A stretch of 64,000 nt of DNA from an uncultured Planctomycetales bacterium (lineage in GTDB: Bacteria > Omnitrophota > Gorgyraeia > Zapsychrales > JAHFFX01), in assembly GCA_964612665.1 (NCBI GenBank), contig CAZTCI010000001.1:508896-572895 (forward strand), written 5' to 3'. Below are positions 21,001-47,061 of this stretch, in pieces (position 1 is the stretch's first letter; each line of letters starts with the position of its first letter). The position numbers were made by a program, and so were the translations under genes. The notes under the pieces were generated by a model. That model had not been told where the DNA came from and did no database searches. It saw only the letters and a program-made list of their open reading frames with translations.

Positions 21001-24000
21001 AATCGGCGCTCCGACGGAAAAATTAAATCTGACATTGCCATCGTTGTCCTGGATTCCTTCTCCAGCGAGCGTAAAGCGATTCGTCAGCGTCTGAACGTGT
21101 TCCAAAAATGTGCCTCGAAATTCCTGCGCGTCACCATGCTGAATCAAGTCGATCATCTCCGGCGTTAGTTTTTTCTGAATGCTCCAGATCACCGCGCCGA
21201 TGTAACGTCGAGTCACTGCCGAGCGAATCATTTTCCCATCGGCATCCAACGGGTGTTCGAAGACCTCCGCGACCACATGTCCCGTTGGGTGATTCAGAAT
21301 CATGGAACGAATTTGACGCGGACGGATCTGTTCGTAGGGCTGATTGACCCACGCGTCGTTATGAACCTGATAAAGTTCAAGGACATTCTCCAACGTCGGC
21401 CAGCGATACACAATCGTAATCCCCTGCTCCGGACGCTCCTCGCGCACGAACAGCGCCAGGTCGTCCAGCGGAATCTGCTCTATATTAGGAAAGAAGCGCT
21501 GCAGGGCATGATTCAATGTCGTGGGGATGTCTTGCCTTTGGAGCGCCAGCGGCGACGGAGCGGTGGACTCAAAATTCTTGATGCGGAATTGATAATATTC
21601 ATCTAAGGTGCTAAACCACGTTGAGAGCGGATGGCGATTGTTCTGGCGCCGAGCCGCTTCAAGAAGGCGGGAAGTTGAGCCAGAGAAGAACATCGTCGTC
21701 AAATGGCCGTTCAGATGGAGAGCTCTGGTATGAAGGATGGATACAACAAGGACTAAAATAATAGCCAAATTCAAAATCATCATCCATCCCCTGTCGTCAA
21801 AACCGTGGATGGCGAGGAAGTAGGTATGGGTGTTAGAATCGGCCGGACGAGTTACATAAGAACTCTGTCTAAGGACGGTCGCAATCAAAGCGAAGGCAAC
21901 GACAATGTATATATTAGAGAAGATACCTCGAACCTTTTTCTGATCTCCTCCGAACGCCTGCTCCATCGTTTTAGTCTCGAGACGGCCGGGATTGAATGGC
22001 GTCCGATCTTCCATCACTTTCCTTAGAATTCTCAACCGCCCGCCCAAGGCCAGTTCGCGGGATTGTCTGGCCGTAATGACATCCACATCCTGATCCGTAA
22101 ATCCGCGGGTTTGGAAATTGGAAATAGGATGCGCGTTAAAATTCTTGAGACGGGAATATTGTGCGTCGGTCAACCGGGCCTTGGCTTCATCCACATAACG
22201 GCCGGACGCAATCATTTGATCGGCTAATCCTTGAGGAGCAAAGACCCCGAATCGGGTCGGATGCTCCCAAACAACAATGATCACTCCCATTGGAAGACTC
22301 GCTAAAAATTCTTCTGTCCATCGCCGCGTCGATTCCAAGGGCGAAATGGTTCGATCGAGTTTGCGCGTTAGCCAAATATAAATATATTCATAAGCAAATT
22401 TTAAAAACACAACGTCCGCCGGCTTTATGTCTCGAACAAACGCTCTCATTTCATCTCTCGACATCAAATCACTCATATGATGATGAAGAGGCGCCAACTT
22501 TTCCAATCGCAGAATCGGATGACCGACGATCCCGACCAATTTTTCTTTCAGTCTTTTAAAACCCATCGTGATATCCCACTCACTCAGCCGATTGTCCACA
22601 GTTGTCATGGACGAAACATAATAACCGGCAAATAAATCAATCCCGGAAAGGATGTTGTGGAGTTGCGTATTGTTACGATTGAAGATCCCGATGGCGGAAA
22701 GGAGTTGTAATTGCAGGAAATAAATTCTGACTTTGATCGGAATCACGCTGTGTACGGTGAGCTGATCCTCACCGAGCCGAATCTGCTCTTCAATTTTACT
22801 GAGGATTTTTCGAACCGATTTTAGTGAATGGAGGAATTTAAATTTGAAAATGGAAACGACCATGAGTAACACGATGGCCAAATTCAAAATCATCATCCAT
22901 ACCCCGTCGTCAAAACCGTGAGTGCCGAGAAAATAGGCTTTGGTGTTGGAATTAGGAACCATGCACGGCATGTTCCACCCGATCATCATGTATCGGTTAA
23001 AAACAGCGATATCATGGTTCCCATCAGGTTTGACACCTCCAGTCATGTGTGTTATTCTTCCTTCACCGGAGGGGGACAACCAATGCATAAACGAAAGGAT
23101 AAAAACATGAACGCCATCAACATGACGGACATCGTCCGCAAGTCGATGCAAGAACTTGTTGTCCCTGAGTTGAAAATCTTGCAGGGTGATGTTCAGAGTC
23201 TCTAGAATGACAATCTTGAGATCAAGGCTGATCTTCGGATCCTCAATAACCGTGTCGACAATCTGGAAAAATCTTTGAACAGCCGGATGGATTCTCTCAA
23301 CAGCCGGATGGACTCCCTCGAGAAAAGGCTGGATAACTTGGATAAAAGGGTTGACGGCCTTGAAAGGCAAATTCATAGCATGCGCGAGGATTTTAAGCTC
23401 GCGCTCGATATTCATGAGCGGCTCACTGCGCTTGAAGTCAAAATTTCTCATCATAATTAGGCAGTGGTTTTGTTGACGAATCATCGCCGGGCCGATTTCC
23501 TCAAAGTTATATAAAGGAAATCGGCCCGTTGTTTTTTGGTTGCTGTATACGATTTTATAGAACGCCGTCACTGTCGAATCCCAGATCATATCGCGCCTAA
23601 GTAAGTCTTTATATCCCATCCCACCGGATTGACCATACCAAATGAAATAAACCAATGCCCATAAAACCAAGGCCACATCAATTCCAACCATGTATGATAA
23701 ATATGCCGATTGAACGCTGTTTTTATTTTGATCTGGCTCAAACGCAAACAAGCGCACGGACAGACGCGAATTCATATTCCTTAAAAGTTCATTTTGCTCA
23801 TTTATGATTTTTTCCAAATTCAACCGTCTCGCGATGGCCGCCGCGCCCACCAGTGCGACAATAACTTGGATCTCCCGTTGACCGGGCAGCCAGTTTTCCT
23901 GAAAATGCAGACGATTCATCTTCTTGATCAATTCTTTCTTCAAATTTAATTTTATTGATCGAATTTTGCCGGCCCGGGACGACAGAGGCACGTCAAAACT

Positions 24001-27000
24001 TTTGACTTCCACAAAAACTAATCGGTGGTTAGAGTCGATCAACACAGCGTCGATTTCGAACGACTTGTTTTCTCGATGGGGATCAGCGATTTCTTTATTC
24101 AAACTCACTACTTTGAAATGAAAATCCATCAGCAACTTGTGTACCGCCCGCAACTCATTGAGCGTGCCAAATCGTAACCCTTTTTTGATGCGGTAAAGAG
24201 CTTTCTCGATACCGTCCTCATTTAGGAATCTTTCCACCAACGAGGCCTCATTCACATTCAACGTCGGTTTCACCTCAGACCAAAGTTGTTGAATGTACGT
24301 TCGCCTGTCTTTCTGATGCTGTTTCCAAACCCGCTGATAAAATCCGCCATCAATCCATCCGTGCTCTAACGATAATCCCAGCCATCGCTCTTGTTTTTCC
24401 CACCGAGAAAAGATAAGCGGCTGGAAGAATTCTCGCGCCTGCAAAAAGGCCTGCACATCTTCATTGAGAAGCTCGTCGGAGTTCTTTAAAGGAGAAACAG
24501 CGCGGCTCAATTCATGCCGCAACAATAGCTTGAGCCATAACCGGCCGGTGCCAGGTTGCAATTTATTGAACATCTTCACAATCCTCTCGACCTGCCGGTG
24601 AATCAAAATGACGTGGTGTTGCGGATCATAGTCAGACATCAGGTCGATCAGTTCTCCCGTTGCTAATGGACACAGAATATGGTCTGCCCACAAAACCGTT
24701 GTAACCTTGGCCAAACGACTGTAATCCAAATTAAAGCTCTCAATGTCTTTAACAGCGATATCAAACCTTTCCGGAAAGTAAAACGCCTTCCCGTCGGAAA
24801 ACTTCAATGTAAAATGTTCTCGCCAGTTTCCTTCGGCCAATGAAACTCTCTGCGTATCTTCGTCGGTTGACGATGATAAGGCTTGTTGAATGTCGTTGAA
24901 CAACGCGTCCGTCGCTCGCAGCGACGGGCCTGATGGCGTCTTTAAATAAACCCCTTCACCTTCTTTAATCAACTCCGGCGCAACAGCCTCAGGCCATATC
25001 GCCCAGTGCCGATGAGACATCTGCACAGCCGCCGCAAGAGCGGCAGACATCAAAACAAGACTTACAATGCCAGCCCAATGCCAAACAATCATTACAACCG
25101 CCACAATTAAAATAATCCCCATGAATAAACTTTGATTTTGGTCTTCGTTCTTTTTATCGACGGATGCGCAGGATGCGTTATGACCGTTGCCATCCGCCAA
25201 AACCAATTTGTGCCGGCGCCAAAATTCATCGAGCTTCTCGGGATAGTTCACGACCGTTTTTACATCCAGCAGTGAGAATTCTTTGAATAAACTAAAGGCC
25301 ATATTGACCAATTGCTGTTCCGTGACTGGAAGTGACGGTTTATAAAAACTTAAAACCGCGTGTTTAAGCATCCCTTTTTTGCCGTCGGTCGCAAATCCGG
25401 ATTTTTTCTTCATATCCGTCAGCGCCTTGCGGATCGCCCAAATTAAATCCTGGTTGTTTTCAAAAGCCCTGGCTTCTTCCGTCGATATAAATACAGCCTC
25501 CTGAATAGGAACGATGATTGTTCCATCACCGTTCTCAAAAGGTCCTGTCAGTTTAAACAATTTCCGTTTTTGATCGACCTCATAAACCCTGGCCATCGCA
25601 TAAATATTCGTCATCACATAAATTGCCCATTGCCGGCTAATCAAATCTAAATCTTCCGCTGACAACCATAAATGAATAGGGAAAGACGGCTTATGTTCGT
25701 GGTAGCCCATCGAAATTTTATTGGGATTGCTTCTGCCTAGGATAGCGGCCGCTTGTTTATGGGTGATGCCGGGTAAAAAGGCTTTAATCAAACGGAAGCG
25801 CTCACGCATCCCCATCCATTTATCTAAGACCCTCAACGACGGCTGGCCGCTTGCAGCTCGTCGCTGGTTAATTTCCACCACCCAGTGTGCGATTGTTCGT
25901 TTAGGAATATTTGTCATCTGCGCGAGCTCTTCGGCCCAGGTGATGGTCAATTGTTCAGCCATGGATTCAACTAACTCTTGGCCCTGGGCATGTGTTGTTT
26001 GTGGACGTCTTTGTGATTGCTCAACCCATCGCTCTAAGAAAGCAGTATCCTCGGCGCTTAAGGTAATTTTTAAAATAGACAACAGGTTTTGGACAGCTTG
26101 CGGTTTCGGAATAGTAAAGCCTCTTTCCCATCGGTCGTATCTTGCTTTGCGGATTTCCATTCCGGGCATAGCATTGAGCATAAAGTCAAGCTGACGTCTC
26201 GATATAGTTTCGTCCTGGCGTTCTTTCTCGATGAGTTCGAAGACGCGTTTCAGGAAATCTCTGTATGCCGCATCCCGGGTCCACGGCAAGTTGCCGCGCG
26301 TCAATTCCACAACAGCCATTACCCAAAAGATACCAAGCCCGAGCAGTCTAACGCCCCAACCGCTCCCCAACGTCTCCCATCCAATCACCGCCTTCGCTTC
26401 ATGATCGGATTTTCTTTCATCGGAATCAACCGGCGAAATTGAAAAATGATTGGCGTTTATCGATGGGCCATTTTCAAAATCCAAATACTGAATAAACTGT
26501 TCAAATCGCTTCCAGAAAACAATGGTGACATCTATATTCTTCGTCGGATGATTGGCTTTGATAGTCCAGAATCCGAAGGCCGTGGTCCATTTCAATGACT
26601 CGATAATTTTAAAATCGCGGGACAAAACATGCTGCAAATGGTAGGCATCTTCCATAGAAAAATGCGCCATTTTTCCAAACTGATAAATGGGCCCTTCAAA
26701 CGGCAGATGGAATTCCCAATGTCCTTCGGAACTTTTCGGCAAATTCGCAAAAAGATCCGCCATTTGCGCACTCAAACATAAGCTATTATTACCGCCCACC
26801 ACAATAACATGGTGCGCGTAAGGCCATAGCTCGTCGGTTAAGTACTCTGATTTATAACCCGCATGACTTAAATAACTATCATCTCCGTTCAGATTCTCAC
26901 TGACATTTTCAAAAACGGCAGTGATCCTGGGATTCTCTAAAAGCTTATTGATAGACGAAGCGGCTGTCTTCAAAGGATCAAACTCTTCGTTAGTATGAAC

Positions 27001-30000
27001 GATCACCAACGTCCATGGGTTAGGAACTTTTTTAGACAAATGCGCGGACAAATGATCTGAAATGGTTTCTTCCAGCGCACTCTGCCAGATATATCGTTGA
27101 GAACGACCGGCAAGAAGTTCGATTCTTCTGGATGAAGAAACGATATTTATATTAAGAAAATCAACATTCTGTTGCCTGTGGATTTGCTGTGCCGCCAGCT
27201 GGACAACGCTATGTAGGATAAGGCCGGCTAACGCGGGTTGATTGTTCAGTTTCAAAAGACCGACGACAAATCTGCGGGGAAGATAAATGACGGGGCCATT
27301 GTCATTCCATTCCGTCGCAGCGACAGCCACATGACGCCAGTTGTCCGCATAAAGGAATGGTTGGCTCTCATCTTCGCGATCGCGAACCAAGATCAATTGA
27401 CTTCGAAGAAGGATGTCAAACAAATCGCTCGCCGCGACGAAATCAAACAATCCTCCCCGAATTTGATCCCACGGGATATTCATCAACGCACTTAAACTCG
27501 CGTCGAGAATTGAGCGATGCAACTCCATGTGAGTTAATAACGGTTCAACATAACGTTCATTCCTTCGACGAACTTTGTCGATTAGTTCCTGGATTTTCTT
27601 GTACTCTATATTCCATGCCTTCACTAACCTGCCGTTCTCATGATTTGTCATGACACCTGCGGCGGCCATCAGCATGAGGGAAGCCGTCACCGCAATGAGA
27701 CTAAAAGACCAACCACCGCCGAGCTGCTCCCATCCCAACAAAGCCTTCGCTTGATGATCTTTGTGATTAAATCTTTTATCGTCTGAATTAACCAGGGGCG
27801 TAATATCTTGAGCCATGGGCAGCGGCTCGATATGATTTCCGTTCGTGGATTTTTCTCTTGGCTCCCGTAAAAGTGAAGCCTCGTAGCCAATACCTCGATC
27901 TTTTCCATTATTTGGCCATAAACGATATTTCTGCAAGAACGAAGGGTCCTTAAGACTCTTTTTCAAATTTTGAATCATGATTCGACTCTTTATATCGCTT
28001 TTGAGAAATTCATTCCTTAACCTCAGAATGATATTCACAAACTGCTGTTGAGTTACAAGGACTCTTGTTTCTTTAAGCATCTGGTGTCCATAATATTTTA
28101 TGGCCATGCTGATGAGTTGCTTGATATCAGACTTTCCACCGTATGAATTCTCACTATATTCCTCAATAACTTTTCTGATCGCTTCGATCAAACCTGGATC
28201 ACCTTCCACCCGTCGATATTCTTCTTCTGTGATATAAACTGCATTCTCCTCGGGAAGCAGCATGACATCACCATTCGCAAACGGGCCTTCTATTTTTAAA
28301 AGACCGTCCCGCTTGGCTATCACGTGGCCAACTTTATAATAACGGTGTTCGACATATAAAACATCATTCTTAACGGGGTTAAAGCGGCGTCCAGGCATTT
28401 GAAAACGCCACAGAGGATATAAATTCTTTTCCAATTTTGAGATGATCTTAAGACTTATTGGATAGAGCGTATTCTTGCGAGGCAATCTCGCGCCACGGAT
28501 TTTCGCAACGGAAACTTCACATATCTGAACAAGACGCTTATCGGAGATCTCCATTATTTTGGGATTGTCCATAAGGCGATTGAGCGCTTCGCGCGCCTCG
28601 ATGAGTTGTTTAAGCACCGGCCGCATCTTGGCGATCACGTTTTCAGATGGAGTGGCTTTTTGTAGACGATATAGCTTGGCATCACGAGAAACTTTGGAAC
28701 GCTGATTGATCTCTGAATCCGTAATGCCCAGTTGGTTGGCTTGCGTGAGCAGTTGAACCAGTTCTATTCGAAGTTTTTTGAGATCTGGCCTTTGTTCTTT
28801 GAAATATTCCGTCAGGGCCATAAGCAATTTAGAGATAGTCGATGCGTGCGGCAACGTCCTATTTCCGGCTGCAATCATACTGATCGTGGTCTGATCCACC
28901 CCAGATAATTTTGCCAAACTCTCCTGATTTAATCCTTGCTCAAAAGCGTTCGTCATCAAGACGAGTACACTTCTAAATTGTTCCGCCGGAGATCCTGCCA
29001 TAGGCAGTCGATCCAATTTACTTTCAATCGATGCAATCGTATCTCGCCTTAATTGCGCCGGAGCCTCTCCTAATATTTTGCGCAGCGTTTTGTCATCAAT
29101 ACCCAATCTCGCCCGGATGGCCCGTCCCGAATATTGGCCTTCCTTATTAAGTCTCTTGATGTAATTCTGAAGGTCAACGGGAAGAATCACCATCACAGCC
29201 AATCCCGACAGGATTTTTAATACAATTATTATTCCTTTGAGGCCGATCAAAAGCCACGTGGATTCGAGGGTGATCGAGGAGAGTTTCTCCGTGTTTTCGT
29301 TTGAAGATTTTTTCCCAGGTTTGTCTTCATACTGCGCCACTTCTTTTAATTTCGACGCCAAACGATCAATATAGTCCTGAGCCTCGTCGGTGACGACGTA
29401 ACCCTGAGCTTCCAGGACATCCAAAACTTCCAGCACAAAAGCGGCCATCATCAAATAATGAATCAAATTTCTACTTTTCCAAGAAGACCATTCTCGAGGA
29501 GAATTTTCTTCTACATAGATCGGTTGAGGAATCGTTTCAACACGGCCTCCCACTTCTCTCAATTGCGAATGAATATTCTCAATCTTAGGAAGATAATCAA
29601 CATACCGCCACAACACATTTTCTTCTGTCTCGATATCCACCCCTTCGCGGAAATAATTCCAGGCCGTCACGATCATTTTCTGATCATAATCTCGCTTTGA
29701 AACGATTCCTTCCCGTCGAAAAACGTACTCACGATCAATCGTGCCCGAAATCATATGCATATAATACAGATCAATATATCGTCGGCCGCCGTTATTCCAT
29801 GGTTTTAAGTCCAAGTTGAATCGTTGATTGGCCTGGAAAATAACCTCGGGGTTAATCAATGTTCTATACAATAGAAGTTCCGTACCAATGGAATCGATGG
29901 TTCTCGTATCCGTGTCGATGAGTATAATTCGGTCTGTTTCCGGAGATAAAATCCCCTCGTCGTGCCAGTATTTGACAAAAAGGACCGCTTGAAGTGAATC

Positions 30001-33000
30001 TTGCCGAACGGCTTGGTCATTGTGCATTGTCGCCCAAACACTATGCATGCGCTCTTCAGGAAATTCTTCTGTAATTCTGGTGTAAATCTTTGACATTTCA
30101 AAAAGCGGTTCGGCTCCTGCTCGCAAGAACACAATACGCGTGTTCTTCCGGTATTGCTTATTCTCTTCGTGGGATCGAGGATATTCTTTGATACGCATGA
30201 ATACGTGTTGTATGAAATCCATCAATCCCAGTCTGCGCTCGGCGCCATGACCCAAAAATGTCGTCAAATGTTTAGTATCCAAATAGTGTTGATACGCTTT
30301 GGCAAACATTGCTTGATCCCCCGCAGAAAAGATTCGTCCGAGGGATTGAATACTCTGATTACGCGCGCGAACATTATCTTCATGTAATCTGAGTCGATTT
30401 AATCTAACCGAGGCAATGGCCGCAAATCCTGCCAGGATTTTAAAGATCAGCATTACACCCTTGATGCCGATTATGATCCACGCGGCGTCGAGGGTGAGGG
30501 CGGGAAGCTTTCCAACATCAGATGTTGGAAAGGGCGGGTTCAACCTGCGGGGTTGATGTCCGTTGGCATGCTTCTCTTGCGGATGGGTGAACTTTTCCGA
30601 GGAAAACTTCTTTATATCTTGGTCGCTCCACTCTTCTCCAAACACCTTTTTTAAATCCGATTTATTTCCGTTCTTTCCGTTCCTCTCCTTCTTTGCCAAA
30701 TCGTCATAGAATTTTTTCATGATCTCATCTTGCCGACGATCGAACTCCTCGGCGGAGAGAGACCAGTCATCTCGCTCTCGTTTGTATGCTTCCTCCGGTT
30801 TCCGATTCTGATTTAACCAAACGTCCTTAAGAACATCGTAGAGATTACACAACATGCGATTCCCCGCAAATTGCCTTAATCCCTCCCGATTGTCCTTATT
30901 CTTCAATATAATGCGGGCCATTTTAGTCTTCTCGAGATCCTGCTTGAGAAGGTGAACTAGGGCTTCATGGCGTCCGAGGTTTATTTTGGCCTCCCCGAAC
31001 ATGTCTTTCACAATTTGAACAAAAAGCTCAGGACCGATCTCCCTCATCGATAGCCAGGCATGCAAGACGATTTCTACTTTTTCTTCCTCGCTTTGAATAC
31101 GATGATGCCAAATCCAGATTTCATCAGAATTTTTGAGACCGCCAGAGGCATGGGAAGATCGAGAAAGGTCCCCATAGATCACACCGACGACGAAGAAGAC
31201 CACGATCAACATTTGTATCGGCGAGAGAACCGTCGACTCCACTCCCAATCCCAAGGCATTCATGGCCGTTGGTTTCCCGGGCCCGCGGAATGCTGTGAGT
31301 TCATTCAACCTGCGGGGTTGATGCCCGTCGGCAATTTCATTCGAAGACTTGATGTGGCGGAATCCTCGGTCGGAGATGTTCAATGTGAACCCATCCTCAT
31401 CAGAGAAACTACTGTAAAACAAAATCTCCCGGGCCAAATACGTTTCGTTAAACTCGATGACCAGCGCCTCACGCTTTTGGCCCATCTCCAACAGATCGTT
31501 CCACAAGAATGTTCTTGAAAAACGAAGTTCGCCAGCACCGATACGAAACGTAATGATGATGTCATTTCCGATGAGCCGGCCTTTCACAAAATAGATCCCT
31601 TGATCTTCCGTCACAATCCGGATTCTGGAATGTCTCAACAGCGTTGAAATCGGCAATTTGATTACTTCTCTGATATGATAAACTTTCTGGAGGGAATATT
31701 CGGCGTAGAAGGACAGCTCGTCTGCATCTGGAAGATGAAGGATAAAGTCATGAATCGGCGGCAATCCGCAGGCGGAATTGGTGAGCATGGCCATGATCAT
31801 AAAACGGATCAGCGTCGGGCTGCGAGTGAAACCAGCGACCTTAAGCCAGAATAGCCATACGATCATTGCCGTAATCAAAACGGCGAGGAAATATGCTAAG
31901 AAAGCAGCTGATAATTTCTCCTCAGAAGACGTCTTCCACCAGGTATATTTTTCCTTCATCTCATGATAGGAATTCAAAATAAGATTTAACGTTCCCTTCA
32001 CGCTTTGTTCCGTTGTCCCCCGCTCGGTGCTGATGTCTTGAATCGTCCATCCATTTAAGATCAGCGTAATAATCTCGCGCTGCGGCGGCGACATTTGATT
32101 CAATAGGGCCCGACGATGTGGATCCAATGATTGAGAATCGCGGATAATTTCGCCCAGGATTTGTTTCCGTTGAGAAGCACCCGCGCCTTGGAAATGAATG
32201 TTGATGCCTTCATGCAGCGGATATAATTCATCGCACCTTTCTTCCCGTTCAATTTGTTCTCTTAGGGGTTTCAAAGACAATTCGTTCTTAAGATCACGGT
32301 ATCTGAGTAATCCTCGACGGGCGGTGATGATCACCGTAGTCCACTTAATCTGCAATAGTCGGGCCACATCCGCCGGATGATAACCTGCAATGGCAAACGG
32401 AAGAATTTCTCGCTCCTTTTCCTCCAGCTGATCAAAGATCTCTCGATGGTCCAAGAGAAAATCTTGTTTAACCTCTCTGAGAATATTGATGAATTCTCGA
32501 CGGTTGGGAGATTTCAGGAAGAAATTGAATTCCGCATCTCGATCGTTGCGGATAACCATCATGGCCAACATGCCGGGTAAAAGGAGTATGACCAAAAAGT
32601 AAAGGCCCTGTATTTCTATAAAAATGATCTGTGTAAACGCGATCAAGACAAGCACGGACGGGAATACGGCGGAAAGTTTTTCCACCTTCCGATCTTGCGA
32701 TGTGGGGGCCAACTCTTTCTCAACAAGCTCCCCACGATATACCATCCGCTGAACAAGGCCCATCGGATAATTGATTTCTTTTAAGTCACCCTTATAGGCT
32801 TCACGCCGGATAACTTCATTGAGCAGGCGAAGTTTCTTTTTGATCTTTTGGACCTGATCTTTTTCTTGCGCACTTAAACTTTGATGATTAACGTATTTTT
32901 TGTGAAGTGTATAATCGTAAACGCTGAGCGAGATCGTCTGTTGTTCTTCTCCAACAATAACGACATTACCTTGATCCCCGGCTGGTTCGATGAAGAATTG

Positions 33001-36000
33001 ATACACAATTCCCTCAGCATAGAGATAATATTGGATTTGTGCATGGCTGTTATTAAAAATGCGGATATCATCAACCGAAAGATAATGCGGCCCATCAGGA
33101 TGATTGTGCAGGTCCAAATAAACGAGGGGATAATCTGGATTTAGTTCCGGACCGACGGAATCCTTATCGCCTTTGACGATACTGTAAAGGTCCCCTTCCA
33201 AGGATTGATGGGAAACTTCAAAAGGTAAATATCCAGAGGCGACGGTGTAAAAACGATCAATCGCGCGCCAGAACTCCGGCGTCCCGACGGCCGCGGCAAA
33301 TGGTCGAGCGCTGTAGCGTGTTCCTTCCTTCGCACTAATAATATCCTGCTTTATCTGATCGAGCGTCATGACTGGCCGACGCTGGATCCGGGAGATAAAC
33401 TTCCGACGGATGAATTCCTGGGCTTCCAGTTCATGGACGGCCATACCGATTATCGCGACCGCCGTCAGGCCGAGCAGGCTAAGCCAATCGGTATAGGCGG
33501 AAAGTTTTTCCACCTTCCCAACCCCGGAGGTTGGGGAGGATAATAATTTTTGGCTAAGATCTGCAGCCACATCCAAGTTTTCCAACACTTTCGTCGCATC
33601 TTTAGAACTTTTAATAAAGACAACCGCCTGAGAAACCGCCGCCGATATTGTTTCTATTTCGCCGATCATCGGAAAACTTCTCTTCCAAATAGCAAACTGG
33701 TGATTCCACGCAGCCAAACGCAGTTTGATGGCCAGATACCTCTTATCGGCCCATAACTCCTTCACTTGATCTCGGGCATGGACCATCGACGGGATTCGGT
33801 CCAAGGACAGGAGCAATCTTTCCTGATTTTCCCGTCGTTGTGCTTCCTGAAGTTCCCGTAATTCTTTTCTAATTTGCTGTAGTTCTTTTAAACTATGGAA
33901 CAATTGCTCAGTGGACGGGCCTTTAAGGACCGTCCGCGACATAGCTGCTGCCATTGCCCCCATCCCAGCAGAGAGCAATATCTTTCCGACGGGGATTCCA
34001 AACCATAACGCGGTCCCCCCATCTACACCTACGAGGTAAAGATGGATCCCCACTCCATACAACGCCAGTGCAATCATGACGGATGGAAATATGGCGAAAA
34101 GTTTTTCCACCTTCCCAACCCCGGGGGTTGGGGAGGATCTGAGGATCACCGCCAGCATTTCAATTAGTCCAACCAATCCCTTAAACACAATCCAAATCCA
34201 CACGGCTTCGATCGTGACGGCGGAGACGTTCTCGATGGGATTGTGATCGAATTCTTCTAGCGCATCGATTTTTCCGTATAAATATTGGGCCAAATGGCGG
34301 ATATCTTTTCGATAGTCGTGCGTCTTAACCAAATCCCAGAGGTTCAATTGTTCCCATTGATCGCCGGCAGCTTCGAGAGCTGCTTGGATTATCTTTAACC
34401 ATTCCTTCGCATAGAATTCTCGATGACGGAAATTGGACGCCACAATCCAGTGCAGTAATTCTTCTTCGGAAGATGTCTTCAACATCTCAATCGCGGCCCG
34501 GCGTTTGGCTGGCGAAGTGACCACCAAATCATTCATCCGCAAATGCTCGTTGAGAATGTGCTTCAGGCGCCGAGTCCTGGCAGAATTCGCCAAGCTGGTT
34601 TTATTTGTGAAGTCATCAAGAGAATTGAACGGATTGTTTAGCTTGCGAACCATCACCACAAATTCGGTCTGCGTCATTGTAAATCCACTCAAAAGAAAAT
34701 CCACCTCATCAGCGTAATTAAGGAAATATAGAATTTGTTTTTTGGTGTTTTTCGGGTGCTTCTGCAATTCTCGACGATGTTGCTCCGCATTTTCTTTCTT
34801 CTCTTTTCGTCTTTCGTTCTCTTTCTCTAAATCCGCCCGTGCCCTTTCACGAGGATTCTGAAATAGAATCTCTCGACGGTTTTCGGACGTTCGTTCCCAC
34901 GACATCGCAAAGACAAAGATATATGCCAGCAACATCCACGGACTGAACAGATAAGTACGAACTCCGGAATGATGGACGATTTGTTTCTGTGGAGTTTCTT
35001 CTTTAGTTGACAAGCCAACTTTCAGGGCTTGGGCGCGGCTGGCGGAGAGGTAAATCAACCGTTGAACAAACATGCCCGCGATCATCAGCACCGTAAAGAC
35101 ACTCATTCCCGTCGATAAATCGATCGTCACGGCGCGGTGTTTTTCGATATCAGAAGAACGACTTGGTGTTTTATCTTGTGCATTCAACCTGCGGGGTTGA
35201 ATGGACATCCTGTTCCCCTTCACACCTCCGAGGCGCGAAAGAGCATTATTTCTTAGCTTTTTACGAATACTTATAATTTTTAACACTGAACGAATATGCC
35301 ATTCTCTTAGCCCCAACCGCTCTTCCCGGATTTCTAATCTATCCCCAGGATATTTTTCAAAATCTGCAGTCACAATTTCGATAAGCCGTTCCCTTTTTTC
35401 TAGCTTTTCTCTTAAACGCACTCCCGCGGCTTTCTGCTTTAAGAACGTTAAATCATAATCCGGCCATATTTTGCTAATAATGTAATTCGACACTTGTTCA
35501 ATGTATTGATGCGATGATCCCATCTGTTCGACAATGATGCTTGATGATTGATCCAAAGCTATTTTGCGGACTAACACTTCTTTTTGCGGGAGCGTTAGTC
35601 CATACCTATCTCCTATATCGTTAAGGGTCCTTACAAGTCCTTCTTTAGTGATGGCATAGCCACTACTCTCCATAATGTCGCGAGCAAAACTTACTCTATT
35701 ACCATGCTCCATCGCTGTCTCCTGAGACGATAGAGAAGATCGGTATTCCTGGATCCCTTTTTGGCGATCTCGGTTTCGCGCATATGTATTTCGTTCGCCT
35801 CGAATTTTTAAATTAATTCCATTAACGACATATGTCAATAAGCCTACGCCATTGCGCCGATCAAATTTGATCACACTGCTGCGAATAGTTTTAATGAAGT
35901 CATCTGTTCTTTCCTTTAGGAAGGATCTATTCCATCTCTGTTTAACTAAGGGCATTTCTGTCAGACCGGCGATGAGGACTTCCATCGCCAAACCATCTTT

Positions 36001-39000
36001 CTTATCTTGAATAAGGTCAATTAAACGGCTCTGTTGCTCACGGCTTAAATATCCTCTGGAATGACGTGGCATGCCCAAGATCGTATTGACAGCGGCTTCA
36101 TCTCTTTGCTGAGGAGCCCAAATAATTTTAAGTTTAGACTCTTTAATAACCGGCACAGGAGGATTCAGCCCGTACCATTTCTTCATTTCATAAAGAATTT
36201 CTACTGAGCTTTTTCCTTTTAGATCGTGATTTTTTGCCCAGTTCAGCAGAAGCCCCTCTAAACATTTTCCTCCAAACCCTGGAATACCTGTATGAATAAT
36301 ATCGCCCACTTTTAAATCTACTATCTTCCCTGCACGGCGATGATTGGCTAGATGTTGAAGGATCGCCCATTGCAACCGCTCTTCAAGTTTGTCCCAGGAG
36401 AATTTCCTCGCCCGTCGGAATTGATCCAATACCGTTTCCAATTCTTCAAGGGTTACTGGTTTTTCTTCTGCCATCGTCATAAGAACAGCAGATGCGCAGA
36501 GGACTGCTATCCACGCTTCCGCACCTACGAGGTGCTGATGGGTAACCATGGCGACGAAAGCGGCGGAAATGATGATAAAGCGGAAGACTCCGTCGAGGAA
36601 ATCATTCAGTCGGCTGGGTTGAACAAATACAATTCGACGCAAAATGGAATTCACATTGTCTTGGCCGACATACGCAAGCGCCGCCGCAATTCCTACCAGA
36701 ACAAAAATCCATAAGGATGGACCAACGGCCATCAGTTTTATCTCTCGATCCCAAAACTGACTTGGCCCACACCGGCGGACAACAAATTTCTTTTCCAAAT
36801 CCTCTTTGACCGTCGTCACATCTTCTTGGACGATCGCGTCCGCCACACGTAAAGAAAATCCCATTTGCAGGGCCTGACGGCCGGGCATGGATGGGCTATA
36901 TCTCAAGCGAAGCCCCTGAATCAACGCGCGATAGGGCGCTTCCTGTCCCCGGAGAAACTTAAGGAAGGCAAACTGTTTGATTTCTTTGGTGGATACGGAG
37001 GTTTCAATATTATTTCTAAGATACGCTAAAAATTCTTTGTAATAACTGACCCAGTGCTCAAGGATTCTTTCCAGCCCCAACTCATTTAATTGTTTGTTCA
37101 AACGATTTGTGTTCCCAAAGACCAAATCTGTCGGTTTAAATTTATCAAATGTATCGGAGGTAATAGGACTCAATAAACAGCGCTCATTTAACGTTGATAC
37201 ACTGAGCTCATGCTTTTCGCCCCCGATTCTGACCCACCGCCCCAATCCCCGTCGGGCCAGGGCAATGAGATATTCGGGTTCGATATCAAATTGATCTTTC
37301 CCTTGATAATAAACGTGAATGTCCAGGTCCTTGATCATGGACCACAATGGGATTTGATTTTCGCTAAAAAGATAGGTCGAGGAGCCGGTGACCGTGATGA
37401 TCGGAGCCTCCACAATGGATAACGTAGCGACTTGCTTTAGAAGTTCGATTAAATCGACCGGCGGTAAAGCTGGATTGTCTGGCTGAACAATAAACTGGCG
37501 CTCAGGACGATAGTAGGAAATGTGTTCATCTTGGTCCACGATCAAAACAGGCCAATGCACTGTTTGGACCGCCGCCAGTAATATCAGCGCGTAGACCGCC
37601 TCGTTCAAACCGATCAGATCTCCGTGGGCCAAAAGACCGGATAAAGCCGCGAGGATGGCGATAGGGCGGAAGAGTTGTGCGATCAACCTGCGGGAGTGAA
37701 CAGACTTGATAAAGCGGAAAATTCCGTCGAGGAATAACATCACCCTCTCCGACGGCGGCGAAGTCTTGAGAAATTCGTAAAACGCGCGGAGGTTTTCAAG
37801 GATGACGCGGGATTTGGAGATTAGAACAGCGGCCATCAAAACAATAATGAGAATTTCCGCGAGGTGAAACACATTATTCGACGAAAAATTTGATTTTCTC
37901 GTCGGTCTTATCCGTGCAGTCGAAAGGAAATCGATTCGATGGGCGTTCAACGTCGCGGCATCTAATAATTCAAACCCTGGGAATGTTTGATCGACGATAT
38001 GTTTAATCAAATCCGCCAACTGATCCGCAGGGATTTTGATTAGATATCCTGGAATTCGGTGCATCTGCTGAGGACTAATTTCCCTCATCTCTTCTGCAGT
38101 CAAAAATTGAACCGCGGCCATCGATACAACCCGGCCTTCTAATCTGTTGACAGTCCATTTTCGCGACATTATACTTTGAATCGAAAAGGAGATAGATTGA
38201 TGACTTCTCTTCAAGATGCTATGAAAATCATTAAACCGCTTCAAAACCGTTTCAAGAAAAGCCATAAGTCCAGAAGAAAAACGAAGATTGCCGACGATCT
38301 TTTGGGTGCGTTCAAAGGTGCGACCGAAGGTAAATCTTCCAGTCAATGTGTTCGAGAATTGAGAAATTCTTCTTATGGTAAGTTTAAATAACCCTTCCTT
38401 GCTCTTGGACTCCGATGTCCTTGTCAGCTGGTTGACGCTCGAAGAAGATATTCTTACCCATAAAAAGCTCTGGGAAGCTCCCCACAAAATAATGACAATG
38501 GTTGAGGAAAATTCTTCTCTCGGTTGTTCAACGATTATCAATCTTATGGAAATCAGGTTTGTGTTGCGTGCTAAGAAGAAATTCAGTGAGCATAAGATTA
38601 CATCTTCTCTTAATAAACTCTCCGAGATTCTGAAGCTATTCATTCCAGATGAAATCAACCTATTAAAGGCGAATGAACTCCAGTCCAAATATCTTTCATT
38701 ATCGCCAACCGACGCTATCCTTCTGTCTGTGGCCACAACCCTAGACAATGTTGTCCTAATCACCCGCGATCGAGAATTATTGAAAGCTGCCTCAAAAATT
38801 GTCTCCGCATCAACTCCTGAAGAATTTCTGGCGAAACGCTGATCTCTTCTGTTCCAATAAAAATTCCCCACCAGCATTGCAATTAGCCCAACCACTCCCT
38901 TAAACACAATCCAAATAAAGCGGAAAATTCCGTCGAGGAATAACATCATCATCTTCGACGGCGGTGAGGTTTTAAGAAGTTCGTAGAACGCGCGGAGGTT

Positions 39001-42000
39001 TTCGAGGATGACGCGGGATTTGGATAGCAGAACAGCGGCAACCAAAATAATGATTAGAATTTCCGCGAAGTTAAAGGAGTTATTCGTTGGAGAATTCGAT
39101 TTACCCGTCGATCTCGTGGCGAGAGCTCTGCTGTCCTGAGATCTTCTTTCTGTGGTGACGAAAGTTCCTACCCTTCTTAAAATTTTGATAACTCTATCCC
39201 TTCCCTGAAGGTTATTAGAACTCTGTCGAGATTGGGGTTGTTCAACGATCGGCAAAGTGACGAAAAAGCTGGCGCCCTGGCCCAACTCGCTCTCCACATC
39301 AATCTCTCCATTGTGCGCCGTAATAATGCTTTTCACAATGTAAAGTCCCTGGCCGGTCCCGTCTTTTCCTTTCGTCGTGAAATATGGCTCGAAGATTTTA
39401 GAGACCAGCTCGGGCGCGATCCCGGGGCCATTGTCTTTCACCTCGAATTGCACGAGGGGCGCATTGTCGATTGGCGTGACGATCAACTCAATCTTTCCGT
39501 CTGGTATCTGCGCTAAGGTATACACCGCATTCTTTAGGAGATTGATAAACGCATGCGTCATCTGAATTTGTTCGACATCGATTCTAATCCCGGCGGCAGC
39601 GGAAAAATCAATCTGAAGTTGCTGTGGATCGAAGAGAGCGAAGATCTCTTCAAAATGTCCTCTAAGATTAGTCAAGAATTCCTCGACGGAAATGACTTTC
39701 TTCTTACCTTTCCCGGAATAACTGAGATAAAAATCAATGATTATTTTAAGCCGGTGGGTAACGCTGTGGAGGGTTTTGAGGACTTCACGCTTGGCTTTAG
39801 GCTCAACGATACCTTGATCGATATTTTTGTCTTGCGGATGCTGGCGGAAATCTTTGACGAGCTGCTTCCAGGCGCGATGAAACTTTTTCAGTTCAGGTAA
39901 ATCATCGAGAAGGATTTGCAACGCCAACATAATTAACCTTTCGCGCTGTTCTTGTGTAAACGGTTGGGCATAATTTTCAAGCACCTGTTGTAATGCCGGA
40001 TTGAATAACCCACCTATTGGCCTTTTCTCTCTTAAAGATAAGGTTGTTCTGTCATGCTCGGGGAGAAAAGGCCTAATACTAGACTTTTGCAATGCAAAAG
40101 TCAGTAATAACTCCGCTCGCTGTTCTCCTGTAAGCAGCTCAGCATATTTTTCAAGCATCGCCCGTTTTAATTCTGGGTTTGATAATGACTGAATATCGAC
40201 ATAAGGTTGATCAGATGCGGCATGGTTGCGAAGAATCTTCAAATCATTAATTTTCTCGAGAAGATTTAAATCCATAATATTCTCACTCAAAGATTGCATA
40301 GCGGATTTGAATGGTTCCGGCAAAATATCGGCATTACCGTTTGCCGGATCAAAGAATAAAGTAATCACGGTCAAATCATTGCCGATTTCATGCAGGAAGA
40401 CCGGCCCCAAATCAGCGATGATCCCCTGCCAATAATCTTCTTTTGGTATCCGCATTACCATAACGACAACCATCGATAGTCCCAGCAGCCAATTGAACGG
40501 CATAATGTATACGGCGTTTCTCTCGGTTGGGAGCTTCATAAATACATATTCCCTTCTGGCCACTGTCTGAATTTCAAGACCAAGCGGCTTTCGGTTTAAC
40601 GTTTTGAGCATTTGGGTGATAAAGTTTATCCGCCGCAAAACTGATGTGATCGGCATGCTGCTGCCATCACCCAACGTCGTCCCTGGTTTTTCTTCCAGCA
40701 GCATCTCCATGGTCTGCCCAATAACTGTCAAGGCCCCGGACAGATTTATGACGACGGGCCCGTCTGTAATAGAATTTCTAAACGCCGTCCCCATCACATT
40801 GCTTTTCCGCACTAAAGCGATCAAATCCTTGGCCTTTGGTGTCGTATCATTGCCAAACACAGGGTCGGATTCTGCCTCCTGCTTGACGTTTAGCATTGCT
40901 TCCAAAATCAATCTTGCGGACTCGCGTGCCCGTGTCGGATCTCCTAACGCTTCGCGTTGGCCATTAACAAATTTAACGAACTTAACCAGCTCCGTGCGCA
41001 GAGCCTTAATCCATTGCGGCCATTCTAGGTAATAAAATAATTGTTCCAGGACTGCCATAATAAGGAGCGTGCGTTCTCCGACGGGTTGGATTGGATTTCT
41101 AGATATTTGTTCTTCTTTCTGTTCAATGTCTAGAATCAAATGCCAGACTGGCTCTACAAATGCTTTCCTCTCAAGCAAGCCCCTTGTATATTTGAAGAAA
41201 TCATTCTGAGATTCATGATGACGCAATACTCGACGGGCAGCCAAACGGGCCATGGGATATTTCATGGAGCCGATTAAATCAGTCAACGTAAGATAATTTT
41301 TTACAAAGCTGCGCAATCCTGGCTCTTCAATCAATCCTTTAAACTCAATCAGCTCGGAAATAAAACGGAAATAGAAAACAAACCGTTCTCCGCCGGCCTT
41401 ATAAAGGATCCGTTTCCTTCCCGTGGCGGAAATAGGCCTATCATTTAAAACTTCGATCAGCCAAGCAGCGATCAAAAGTCTTAATGCCTCCATGTCCTCA
41501 TCCTCAACCGGCCCACTTAAAATCCACGCGCGTTTTTCGTCGGTGGAAAGGGCCAGGAGATTATCGAGACCAGTATACTGGCCGCGCACCGCCATCAAAA
41601 ATACCGGAGCGCTCAGCAACATCAAAGACATTCCCATCCATAAAACGGTTTTGATGGCGAGTATAACCAACATCAATCCGCCCACGGCGCCGACCAAGGC
41701 GATGGAATGCAATTTCTCCTCGAGCTGCGCGATTTTATTTTCTATTCCATTTGTCTTTTCAGATTCTTGGTCTTTCTTCCCGTTTCCATTCAATTCAGTG
41801 GAATACGCTGTCAGAGTGAATAATTCTTTTAAGTCCTCTTCCCATTGCTTATGAAAAGGAAGGCTCTCTGCATATTCCTGGAAGAGACCTGCGCGCAGCT
41901 GACGCCACACCATATGGTCGAGCAAGACCTGACCATTGATGACAAATGCCTGCGCAAAGTGTCTTAATTCCTCGACGTAGGCCGGATATTTCTGTGAGAT

Positions 42001-45000
42001 CTTTTGTAAAGAAGACAATTCCTCGGATAGAGAATCTTTCTTAAGCAAAGCATCCACGTATTGTTCAATCTGTTGGCTTTTAGCATAGTCATGGTCTTGC
42101 GATAAACGGATACGTTCTTCAATACGATCCGTGGCTGTTTCAAAAGCAATGATCCAATCGGCATCAGAACCGGAGAATTCCGAGACATAGCTTGATACCC
42201 TGGACTTTAATAAAAGCCTGTGCGTCGTCCCGGCCTCACCGTTACGGGCGATACGGGCCATGATTTGTCGCATATCACGTTTGGAAAAAAGAACGTTGTA
42301 AAGAACAGCCACAACGCCGGAGGCAACATTGGTCAAAATATTCACCCCTCGGCCTCCCATGGGACTGGTAATAAGAATCGTAATCTGTAAGCGGCCTTTC
42401 TGGTTAATAACATAACCGGCCTTTTCAAATTGACCGGCTTCTTCCCTGCGCTTTTCAGGATTTTGATCGATCCCTAAAACAGTCTCAATCTTGATATCAT
42501 TGTTGGGCCGGCCTCTTTCCAAGATGGCGTTTAATAGTTCCTTGACATGATGGGCCGAAGCGATATCTTCCGTCGCGATAAAAACCGGCCTTCCTGACAA
42601 TAAAGCATTCATAACAATTTCGATTAAGCTTTGGTCCATCTCTTCCACGGTCTCATATCCGATGGAGGAATGATCAACCCGGATGGATTTGATATCGGAG
42701 GGTTGAACATACACTTGCATGTTCAATCTTTTCTTTAAATGCTGTTCAATCGTCGGACTCATCTCTGAACCACTGACCGCGGCATAGCCATGTCTATACA
42801 ACTTTAAAAGGGAGTGATACGTCAAGGCCGCCAAAAGCCGGCGCGGATTCTTTTCATTGTCGATACCGGAACGCGCTTCTATCATACGTTGTACCTCGGG
42901 AGAATAAACACGCAAAATGTCCGGGCGTTTACTATCGTCGGGAATAGGCAATACATTTTCACGTTTAGCATCTAAACAAAAATCATGATCCTCTTTAAGG
43001 TTCCAGCCAATCACCGCAAAGTCCGCCAGCTGACGCAAATGCGCATCAGAGATTTCATCTAATTCCCGACGATTTCTAAGAAATTCCATAATCTTCCGCG
43101 GGTCACGCCAAACCACTTGTCTTCCCTGATCGGAAGAAATAATCTCTTCGGGATTCGTAGCCCAATCTTTCAACAAAAAGAAGACGTCCTTATCAAAACG
43201 ATGCCACGCTGTATAGGCTGCGATAATTCTCTTCACTAATTCTTTATCCTTACCGTTGACGATGATGTCGATCGACAGAGTATTCAAGACGGAGAAGATA
43301 TCCCAAAGATAATAATCCGCCTCATCCAATAAAGCCCGACGATCAATGGTCAATGGTTGTTCTAAACTTTTTCTGGTCGAAATTTCTCGCGCCAGGGCTG
43401 TTAAAGAAATATATCGGATCTGTGCTTTGCCGGCTTCAGCCCAGAGAGAGGAACCAAAAAATCTAGTGAACCTTTTTGACTGGCCCGGAATAAGTAGTGT
43501 ACGGGACCCTTCGGTGATGCAGCTTACGGAATGCCCCAAAGAAGCCAAAATCCCGGCCTGACTGTTAAAGCCGTCTTGGGCCAAATGATCTGTCGTGGTG
43601 ACGATATCCGTTGATACACCCATTTTCTCCAGAGCATCGGCCGCCATCGACAAGGCCATGGTTTTTCCGGCGCTGGTATCAAACTTGACAAAATATCCCC
43701 GCGATCCGTCTTCGGTCCTCGGTTGCATCAAGAGTTCAGCAGTTTTAAGTTGTGCGGGGCGGCGTTGATACTTAATCATAATATTCTTATCAGCCATCCT
43801 TCGACGCGCAATGACCTCAAATTCCTCTAATGATTCCCTAATTACGTCGGGAAAATATTCGCTCAAGGATAAAGGCAGATCGGTCCACGCCACGCCATTT
43901 TGTATCGATGTTTTAATAATTTCTTTTTGTTCACTGAATACGTTCAGTTGAGGGGTGGGAGTCTCGTCGATCTCCCCAATGATATTCGCGGGCGTAGATA
44001 AAGATTCCATCTGAAGTCTTTCTGCCTCCTCTTCCAACGGCGAAACTTTTTCCGGACGCTGGAACTCAAACGACATCTCGGGTTCAGGAGGCTGAAAAGC
44101 AATTCCAAAATAATGGGCGAGATGATGGACTGACTTAAAGAATCTTTCCATTGATATCTCAAATCTTCCTTGTTCATAATTCTTCACTGACGACTGGCTT
44201 AATTGTAGAATTTCGGCAAATTGAGTTTGAGATAAGTCCAGCTCCTTACGAAGATGGGTTAAATTCAAGAGATATTTTTTCAGTAAAGCATTCTGTTGGC
44301 TGTTTGGAGAGGATTTCGCTTCTTGTTGAACATCATTGATGAATTCTTTCACTTCCGTCGGGACCTCACTGGAAACATTGTCCATTAAGAAATCTATAAC
44401 CTTCTTCATTGACTTTGCGCTAAGTTTCCATGCCTTGGCAGAACTTGCGTGATCTACAATATATTTTTGCCCTCCCATCGACGCGATCATTGTCTCGACA
44501 GAGTATCTCTGCTTAAAACGATTTAGTAAATGCTTAATCGGCTCGCTCAATCTCTTAAAAATTTCGCGTCGTTCTTCTCTTGATGCACGCAAAGCTTGTG
44601 CATACAAAAGCTGTATCTGCTGCTTCCACTGCTTAATGTCTCGAGACCACTCACCAATGGGCTGAACATCCTCATTCTGCCCACCGAAAGTAGAGATGAT
44701 GATAGATTCATCGATGAGCTGAACATTCTCATTCTGCTCAAAAGCGATAGGAATCTCGTCCGCCTCTTGTAATGAAATCAAGCTAGAGATTGGCTTTTCT
44801 TCTTCAATGAACTGAGTATCCTCATTCTGCTTACCGATCAAACTTTCATCGACCTCAGGCAAAGTTAATTCAAAAGTCGTTTCTTCATCGCTTTCTGGAG
44901 TAAGGATGATGATAGATTCATCGATGAACTGAACATTCTCGTTCTGCTCAAAAGCGATAGGAATCTCGCCCATCTCCCCAATTCCATTCGTGGGCGGAGA

Positions 45001-47013: not shown

Positions 47014-47061
47014 TAGCTCATGGAAAAATTCCTTTGTGTCTTGAACGATGACCTTCCAACT

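Follow-up and report, generated by a model that had tools for sequence, protein, structure and literature searches.

How did a handful of short, nearly identical DNA strings come to stand at the boundaries between otherwise unrelated segments of one giant gene? The question is raised by a stretch of 64,000 nucleotides (nt) of contig CAZTCI010000001.1 (positions 508,896 to 572,895), from an uncultured bacterium with an Omnitrophota lineage in GTDB; the whole of this stretch is called the window below. A single stop-free frame runs through it on the minus strand (1..63999) and encodes at least 21,333 amino acids (aa), a lower bound, as the giant open reading frame (ORF) is open past both window ends and has neither its start nor its end within them. 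Apart from this frame, the window is without ordinary genes. The original prediction had drawn attention to recurrent peptides at module boundaries in the ORF, just N-terminal of transmembrane (TM) helices, and had proposed that they were either sites of proteolytic processing or recombination 'splice' sequences for the shuffling of modules. We found that the underlying strings belong to a larger set of short blocks that are distributed as a mosaic over neighbouring membrane-anchor junctions. The balance tips, modestly, towards a reading in which these blocks were recently exchanged among related junctions, their peptides being the charged cytoplasmic flanks of the anchors.

The strings recur far above chance. 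Motif 1, TTCAACCTGCGGGGTTGA (QPRRLN), has three exact copies (30539-30556, 31304-31321 and 35183-35200), the last about 10 nt from where it had originally been placed, one of a few small corrections to coordinates. Variants with three mismatches lie at 37682-37699 (HSRRLI, same frame) and 19429-19446 (SAPQVD, different frame), so that there are five matches against 0.04 expected. A 42-mer of motif 2 is present twice (33499-33540 and 34096-34137; 41/42 identical, none expected), and the 3′ part of this motif, GGCGGAAAGTTTTTCCACCTT, 21-23 nt in length, is located at 32668, 33496, and 34093. With 3-5 copies observed and 0-0.2 expected, a chance origin was ruled out. The translations also proved to be as claimed: motif 1 gives S-IQPRRLN at aa 9601 and GHQPRRLN at aa 10894 and 11149, and motif 2 gives SPT(P/S)GVGKVEKL(F/S)A at aa 9956 and 10155 and APTSQDRKVEKLSA at aa 10431.

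A 19-residue Kyte-Doolittle scan predicted 94 TM segments in about 52 clusters, covering the whole length of the ORF. Every motif copy is 4-27 aa upstream of such a predicted helix, and in a census of 5-mers over the whole translation QPRRL/PRRLN, KVEKL, and EKLSA were the sole 5-mers with at least three copies all adjoining TM helices. The placement just before helices was thereby borne out over the full translation, as was the view of conserved junctions between unrelated domains, the cargo domains between anchors having no detectable similarity to each other (E > 0.04; best E = 0.04). The full motifs (three QPRRLN and three KVEKL) were present only in aa 9600-11154, about 7% of the ORF, at six of the approximately 52 TM-cluster junctions.

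Pairwise comparison of TM-proximal segments (aa 7400-11650), together with a nucleotide self-comparison of aa 7300-12000, placed both motifs within a wider set of short blocks, no fewer than four in number and named alpha, beta, gamma, and delta (18-48 nt, 85-100% identical among copies), motif 1 being block gamma and motif 2 block beta. The blocks are common to about 11 TM-anchor junctions in aa 8296-11610 (about 10 kb), with unrelated cargo in between. The blocks, and their copies by position, are these:

Block alpha, IWIVFKGxVGLIxML: 46 nt, 93% identical; aa 8362 and 9935.
Block beta, SSPTxGVGKVEKLxA: 46 nt, 96% identical; aa 9954 and 10153.
Sub-block of beta, GKVEKLSA: 23 nt, 100% identical; aa 10161 and 10437.
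Block gamma, QPRRLN: 18-30 nt, 93-100% identical; aa 9600, 10893, and 11148.
Degenerate gamma, HSRRLI (15/18 nt; aa 8767) and QPSRLN (diverged; aa 9127).
Block delta, FLDG(I/V)FRFI: 26-28 nt, 92-93% identical; aa 8354, 8756, and 9134.

29170..39114, minus strand: the anchor-rich segment, aa 8296-11610.
38914..39114, minus strand: anchor segment 'A' plus delta (FLDGIFRFI) of anchor T8296, aa 8296-8362; 84% nt identity over 200 nt to 37708-37908.
38869..38916, minus strand: alpha copy IWIVFKGVVGLIAMLV, aa 8362-8377; matches 34150-34197 with 93% identity over 46 nt.
37708..37908, minus strand: paralogous anchor segment 'A' plus delta of anchor T8698, aa 8698-8764.
37682..37699, minus strand: degenerate gamma HSRRLI, aa 8767-8772 (15/18 nt), directly after block delta in anchor T8698.
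36604..36621, minus strand: degenerate gamma QPSRLN, aa 9127-9132, directly before block delta, the opposite order to T8698.
36575..36600, minus strand: delta copy FLDGVFRFI, aa 9134-9142 (24/26 nt).
35183..35200, minus strand: gamma copy IQPRRLN, aa 9600-9606, followed by a TM helix at 35044-35133.
34150..34197, minus strand: alpha copy IWIVFKGLVGLIEMLA, aa 9935-9950; this TM helix stands immediately upstream of block beta.
34093..34140, minus strand: beta copy RSSPTPGVGKVEKLFA, aa 9954-9969.
33496..33543, minus strand: beta copy LSSPTSGVGKVEKLSA, aa 10153-10168; matches the copy at 34093 with 96% identity over 46 nt.
32668..32691, minus strand: partial beta copy RKVEKLSA, aa 10437-10444; matches 33496-33518 exactly over 23 nt, without the first hairpin.
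31304..31321, minus strand: gamma copy GHQPRRLN, aa 10892-10899, followed by a TM helix at 31162-31254.
30539..30556, minus strand: gamma copy GHQPRRLN, aa 11147-11154; 30 nt at 93% in common with the copy at 31304.
30508..30532, minus strand: diverged unit resembling beta, FPTSDVGKL, aa 11156-11164; the gamma copy at 30539 precedes it by 12 nt.
29176..29307, minus strand: anchor T11572, NTEKLSSITLESTWLLIGLKG..., aa 11565-11608.

The last of these anchors, T11572, has a paralog in the TM portion of anchor T11149 (30400-30570; E = 1e-10 in a small database). In the latter anchor (aa 11144-11200), gamma is followed by a beta that has diverged (PTSDVGKLPA), and this in turn by an alpha-like helix, LTLDAAWIIIGIKG..., which has paralogs in aa 11572-11604 and in the alpha helices. 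Weaker versions of EKL(S/H)(A/S) plus a TM helix were located at aa 7428, 10693, and 11570.

The likeness among copies resides in the DNA rather than in the peptide. The islands are 85-96% identical, while the in-register flanks (60 nt, and 60-120 nt) on both sides have identities of 0.18-0.38, where random in-frame pairs give 0.26 ± 0.06 as background, and these are boundaries as sharp as gene conversion would leave. Inside the islands, identical residues have the same codon in 13/13 cases for beta, 12/13 for alpha, and 5/5 for each of the three gamma copies, with even the rare AGG and GGG codons kept identical; outside the islands, codon sharing is near the expectation from usage. Under independent conservation of the peptide, and given the codon usage of the gene, such codon identity has a chance of 1e-5 to 1e-8 per block, and conservation of the peptide alone was ruled out on this ground. 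The block cores have no synonymous differences, and most changes found in the islands or along their margins alter the residue (S/P and S/F for block beta; for block alpha, V/L, A/E, and V/A), as is expected of young, nearly neutral copies. Because the codons are identical in the islands and the differences mostly non-synonymous, the sequences indicate that the blocks are young copies and not old peptides under purifying selection. Moreover, block alpha is without a hairpin yet nucleotide-identical, and nucleotide identity is therefore independent of RNA or DNA structure. It had also been considered that the motifs might merely be part of a duplicated larger domain. This holds in so far as the strings are pieces of recurring TM-anchor cassettes, but the flanks of the islands are at background level, which rules out simple duplication of a larger domain for the islands and leaves it only for the 200-nt pair of T8296 and T8698.

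This pair provides the clearest view of how the blocks are combined. T8296 and T8698 are 84% identical over 200 nt as far as FLDGIFRFI, where the similarity breaks off abruptly (aa 8362/8764). Past the breakpoint, T8296 goes on with block alpha, which has its partner in T9925, about 1,570 residues away, and T8698 goes on with a gamma variant, which has its closest partner in T9601. T9925, in turn, has alpha and then beta, while T11149 has gamma, beta′, and alpha′, and the order of gamma′ and delta is inverted between T9089 (gamma′ before delta) and T8698 (delta before gamma′). The tracts of T8296, T8698, T9925, and T11149 have different partners, the mosaic pattern looked for in gene conversion, and most block partners are neighbouring anchors. 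The resulting in-frame direct repeats are spaced 199, 255, 276, and 1293 codons apart.

Two further observations were made at anchors and junctions. A second paralogous pair, unrelated to the first anchors and similar in the anchor only (..HGFDDxxWMMILNLAI..), is located at 22828-22953 and 21715-21840 (aa 13683-13724 and 14054-14095), with 64% aa identity, an identical core of 24 nt, and cargo that is unrelated on either side; the arrangement of shared anchor and different cargo is therefore not unique to the region first flagged. At about 35206-35229 on the minus strand, a perfect Shine-Dalgarno match (GGAGGTG) lies inside a 13-bp hairpin; after it come AAGGGGA, a further 6 nt, and an ATG in frame (M9598), directly before the gamma copy at 35183. 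Either translation could start here internally, or the site could be the fossil of a gene boundary. By eye, fossil intergenic regions had been entertained for the junctions in general, and the idea was dropped because a Shine-Dalgarno match plus ATG is present at one junction only.

Because the islands are identical above background-level flanks, share synonymous codons, have mosaic partners, and end at a clear breakpoint, DNA appears to have been exchanged between junctions, and to this extent the recombination reading of the original prediction stands. In the reading that we favour, aa 8296-11610 would be built as a TM anchor followed by an unrelated soluble cargo domain, repeated about 11 times, and recent intragenic short-patch exchange between nearby junctions would have kept or made the blocks identical. 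Segmental gene conversion or inter-locus replication template switching would be the likely mechanisms, and the palindromic cores of some blocks may have favoured the exchange. Template switching is known to create and to perfect inverted repeats, in coding DNA included (PMC8794818, PMC8604942, PMC7202029). The peptides of gamma and beta (RR and K.EK) would, under the positive-inside rule, form the positively charged cytoplasmic flank of internal signal-anchor helices. As a side effect, recombination between the in-frame repeats would delete or duplicate whole anchor-plus-cargo modules.

Several points weigh against this reading or narrow it. With flanks at background level, only the 18-48-nt island is left as a substrate for gene conversion, and such lengths are near or below those usually minimal for homology-dependent conversion; because no more homology than this is available, the mechanism of exchange is not established. 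Both motifs contain CAACC-N5-GGTTG, in different frames, which exchange alone does not predict, and a palindrome common to the two hints at a property at the level of nucleic acid. A hidden Markov model (HMM) of the alpha-type anchors recruited no other anchors or further members, and the anchors are for this reason better described as mosaics, or a network of common blocks, than as one alignable domain. All TM positions and the topology derive from the hydropathy scale and are hence predicted. Finally, there was no related genome in the databases searched. Specifically, neither aa 9580-11250 nor aa 8255-9584 had a relative among 5.8 billion protein clusters, nor did aa 9585-10780 in an exhaustive HMMER search of 1.84 billion representatives. 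A protein-guided scan of JGI metagenome contigs returned no relative, and in a codon-degenerate scan of the same contigs the peptide PTxGVGKVEKL was absent in any codon spelling. An 18-mer scan of GTDB representative genomes gave only seven unrelated singletons, none in a giant ORF, which is consistent with chance; a scan of IMG/VR gave no copies of the motif, and BLAST against plasmids and phages no relatives. One of the seven singletons is in a groundwater metagenome-assembled genome of an 'Elusimicrobia bacterium' (JACQWV010000017.1, 44% GC), which has ORFs of normal size and no giant frame, and was treated as a chance match.

The palindromes deserve attention in their own right. In the window, CAACC-N5-GGTTG occurs five times against 0.21 expected, and it is read as CAA CCC CGC AGG TTG in gamma (QPRRL) and as CCA ACC TCC GGG GTT GG in beta (PTSGVG). 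At the gamma copy at 35183, the palindrome is extended to 9 bp, CATTCAACC-CCGCA-GGTTGAATG (35181-35203, fold z = -5.05), and a 13-bp stem with G-U pairs is present at 35215-35250. The beta copy at 34093..34140 has two adjacent hairpins, CCCAACC-N5-GGTTGGG and GGTGGAAA-AAC-TTTTCGCC, that at 33496..33543 has a fold z of -3.47, and the beta-like unit at 30508-30532 contains a perfect 11-12-bp palindrome, CTTTCCAACAT(C)-GATGTTGGAAAG (z = -4.33). We consider the palindromes real and possibly tied mechanistically to the exchange. Related structures were noted elsewhere in the ORF. A near-perfect palindrome of 15 bp, TACCCATCTACACCT-CCG-GGGTGTAGATGGGTA, occupies 49333-49372 on the minus strand (aa 4878-4889); it encodes THLHLRGVDGY, directly abuts a TM helix at aa 4885, has an RNA fold of -25.4 kcal/mol (z = -6), and has its apex, ACCTCCGGGGT, in common with block beta. 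Where another TM helix starts, at about 47935-47955 (aa 5349), there is a similar hairpin of 9 bp. The string at 19429-19446 (aa 14852), TCGGCCCCGCAGGTTGA, resembles gamma in 15 of 18 positions in a third frame (SAPQVD), 26 aa before a TM helix, and two changes in its arms keep the pairing as G-U on the sense strand. This look-alike could be a product of chance or a frame-independent copy.

Such structures could mean that the strings act as hairpins of mRNA or single-stranded DNA before TM-coding segments, where they might cause pauses in translation, serve in the processing or stabilisation of mRNA, or bind proteins, the peptides being by-products. The excess of CAACC-N5-GGTTG across two reading frames and the third-frame look-alike is in line with this idea, as is the number of CC-N5-GG hairpins with a stem of at least 6 bp (11, against 4.5 ± 2.1 in synonymous-codon shuffles), all 11 of which fall between 35 aa upstream of a TM helix and its end, a zone that makes up 19% of the protein. 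Copies extend the stem differently, to 9, 11, 13, and 15 bp (z = -3.5 to -6), the beta-like unit at 30508 has kept its helix through three double-sided changes, and both differences between the beta copies are compatible with the structure, one being in the loop and the other making a G-U pair. However, this hairpin family was defined post hoc, and a pre-specified test for stable 36-nt folds upstream of the 52 first-TM starts was not significant (P = 0.087; counts P > 0.6), leaving a general rule that a hairpin precedes a TM helix unsupported. The strongest local folds in the gene are mostly not near TM helices, the global hairpin excess is modest, and covariation was at shuffle level for the second beta hairpin (eight paralogs) and only suggestive for the first (three sequences, one of them diverged; 39/500 shuffles). 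Moreover, the older copies (37682, 36604, and 32668) have lost their pairing, alpha and delta, which have no hairpin of this sort, are no less identical in their nucleotides, and template switching can make perfect stems and 'compensatory' changes without selection (PMC8794818). The slight sense-strand excess of hairpins that contain G-U pairs can be explained largely by base composition. Covariance models of Rfam 15 had no match in the 64-kb window, no terminator-like tail or promoter signal was found at the motifs, and intrinsic terminators and -1 frameshift heptamers, considered by eye, were dropped as no supporting features were present. We therefore regard a hairpin function as unlikely, and some functional nucleic-acid signal, whether hairpin or recombination site, has in our view a small chance overall. 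Were there one, the strings could be in-frame sites for adding, deleting, or swapping anchor-plus-cargo modules, or mRNA hairpins that coordinate translation with membrane insertion or the processing of a transcript of >64 kb; in either case the encoded peptides would be of secondary importance.

Taken specifically as targets of programmed site-specific recombination that shuffle in-frame modules, in the manner of a shufflon or cassette array, the strings would be short imperfect palindromes with asymmetric spacers, all in frame at module boundaries, and the non-colinear block order and clean breakpoint would fit, as would a Phage_int_SAM_4 match inside the ORF (weak, E = 3e-5, below the Pfam cut-off). 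The right arm, GTTGAAY, also agrees with what we take to be the loose integron core, GTTRRRY, a pattern of low information. A shufflon, however, needs inverted sites, and attC is a bipartite palindrome of 57-141 nt; here every copy is a direct repeat, site length is 18-20 nt (palindromes 17-33 nt) and thus far short of attC, and the 64 kb had no detectable catalytic domain of a recombinase. Flanks are not co-transferred with any site, two different 'site' sequences and the non-palindromic blocks give the same island pattern, and the 18-mer was no more frequent in GTDB representative genomes than by chance. Exchange of DNA thus stands, whereas dedicated 'splice' sites are very unlikely. Tiny mobile palindromic elements inserted in frame into tolerant linkers, akin to repetitive extragenic palindromic (REP) sequences, transposable elements of the miniature inverted-repeat kind (MITEs), or Rickettsia palindromic elements (RPEs), would likewise give palindromic cores, multiple identical copies, background-level flanks, and linkers that tolerate arbitrary peptides, and RPEs are a precedent for in-frame insertion (PMC10969869). 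Yet all full copies have one orientation and one frame, the strings (18-46 nt) are far shorter than known MITEs or RPEs, the non-palindromic blocks behave alike, and no copies were found in other genomes in the searches of GTDB representatives (beyond the chance singletons), IMG/VR, and JGI contigs. In addition, the paralogs T10155 and T10431, with and without the first beta hairpin, are equally long (PTSGVG and PTSQDR), which speaks for substitution and not insertion, and we hold insertion of such elements to be highly improbable. The same slim prospects attach to the peptides as recognition sites at which the giant polyprotein is cut into membrane-anchored pieces, perhaps by a JAB-like domain. 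Cleavage of these giant proteins after translation has been raised as an open question, with no cleavage points known (10.1101/2023.11.21.568195), and the position at module boundaries would suit it. The JAB/RadC-type domain that had been claimed at 32.9-33.3 kb is present as a signature pattern: HNHPDGPHYLSVDD (33067..33108, minus strand; aa 10298-10311), a JAMM/RadC-like pattern match only, is an exact fit to HxHx7Sx2D. It is without profile or structural support, in that aa 10195-10430 (236 aa) matched no Pfam family at E<=1, a phmmer search of the PDB gave only noise, and the AlphaFold2 single-sequence model had a predicted local distance difference test (pLDDT) of 37, too poor for a fold search; a very divergent JAB-like domain is possible. 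Further points against processing are the restriction of the motifs to six of about 52 junctions, all within aa 9600-11154, conservation at the nucleotide level with non-synonymous changes tolerated inside the motif (S/P and S/F, and H/I before QPRRLN), and the absence of the motif 2 peptide pattern from the JGI contigs. To our knowledge, based on comparison by eye, the motifs are unlike the sites of signal peptidase, lipobox, double-glycine, sortase, or prepilin processing. A twin-arginine translocation (Tat) signal was dropped, the RR being 19-22 aa from the helix, as was a prepilin-like G|FTLIE, for which no supporting features were present.

Pfam matches are scattered among the TM clusters of the ORF and include HTH_3/HTH_31, Sigma70_r4_2, GerE, one HATPase_c, and a DAO/NAD-binding segment. 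Helix-turn-helix domains of Xre type, sigma-70 region 4, and LuxR/GerE are strung between the anchors of one polypeptide, an odd combination, with the following positions in the giant ORF:

31987-32109: Sigma70_r4_2 (Pfam).
28813-28941: HTH_3 (Pfam).
aa ~16805: GerE (Pfam).

Two SecA matches were below their gathering thresholds, P-loop_SecA (E = 7e-4) and SecA_DEAD (E = 7.8e-5, with 22.5 bits where 24.6 are needed), and the SecA-like region (aa 6720-7480) had a single match among the 5.8 billion protein clusters, a weak one at 23% identity to a protein (P0001) that carries SecA Pfam domains. A tandem duplication at 43957-44679 and 44959-45669 (aa 6441-6681 and 6111-6347) has a period of about 1002 nt, 75% aa identity, exact runs of <=46 nt, and Xre-type HTH_3 domains without a TM helix, and looks like an ordinary recent segmental duplication. 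The sole long antisense ORF in the window (20245-21168, plus strand; 307 aa, TTG start) lies across the giant frame and is probably open by chance.

Bacterial genes of giant size (20,000 to >100,000 codons) have been described only recently, and their build, evolution, and processing are open questions (10.1101/2023.11.21.568195). In term searches of the two preprints on such genes, neither gene conversion nor recombination, palindromes, or linkers came up in Nielsen & Lui 2026 (10.64898/2026.06.07.730766), and 'hairpin' did not come up in West-Roberts et al. 2023 (10.1101/2023.11.21.568195); common blocks at anchor junctions therefore appear not to have been described in either. The locus offers a concrete building principle, in which unrelated cargo is strung between anchors with nucleotide-identical, partly palindromic, mosaic junction blocks. 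We take the mosaic pattern as direct evidence of ongoing exchange of DNA inside one ORF, which we would class with the mosaic or concerted evolution of repeats within a gene, the host gene here being an unusual one, and it speaks against the QPRRLN and KVEKL motifs as the missing cleavage sites. In-frame direct repeats could also drive the gain and loss of modules, a plausible route by which giant genes grow and vary. The practical value will be modest until a second genome or population data exist.

Known systems match the locus in part. Segmental conversion and concerted evolution are exemplified by the mosaics of pilE/pilS, vlsE, and msp2 and by the near-identical modules of the mycolactone polyketide synthase. 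Segmental gene conversion systems are similar in their short identity tracts, sharp borders, diverged paralogous surroundings, and mosaic blocks; here, in contrast, donors and recipients are within one ORF, tracts are 18-48 nt with no flanking homology, and neither a context of antigenic variation nor a silent cassette archive is evident. With template-switch mutagenesis (PMC8794818, PMC8604942, PMC7202029) the locus has in common perfect coding stems of 9-15 bp, co-changing arms, and copy-specific extensions; an intra-strand switch accounts for palindromes but not for identical copies at multiple loci, and an inter-locus switch must be added. RPEs (PMC10969869) are also palindromic repeats that are tolerated in coding sequence and add an arbitrary peptide, but they are about 100-150 bp, genome-wide, and recognisable as insertions, whereas here units of 18-46 nt are present in one gene, in one frame and orientation, and at least one has arisen by substitution. 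The giant 'Archaeovorin'-type proteins of Omnitrophota (10.1101/2023.11.21.568195; 10.64898/2026.06.07.730766) differ in that no sequence relative of this ORF was detected in the databases, so that membership of this type is putative and the likeness is one of architecture: a single ORF of tens of kb, dozens of TM helices among mostly unannotatable soluble segments, and a HATPase_c domain, a weak, divergent SecA_DEAD/P-loop_SecA match below threshold, and many regulatory domains.

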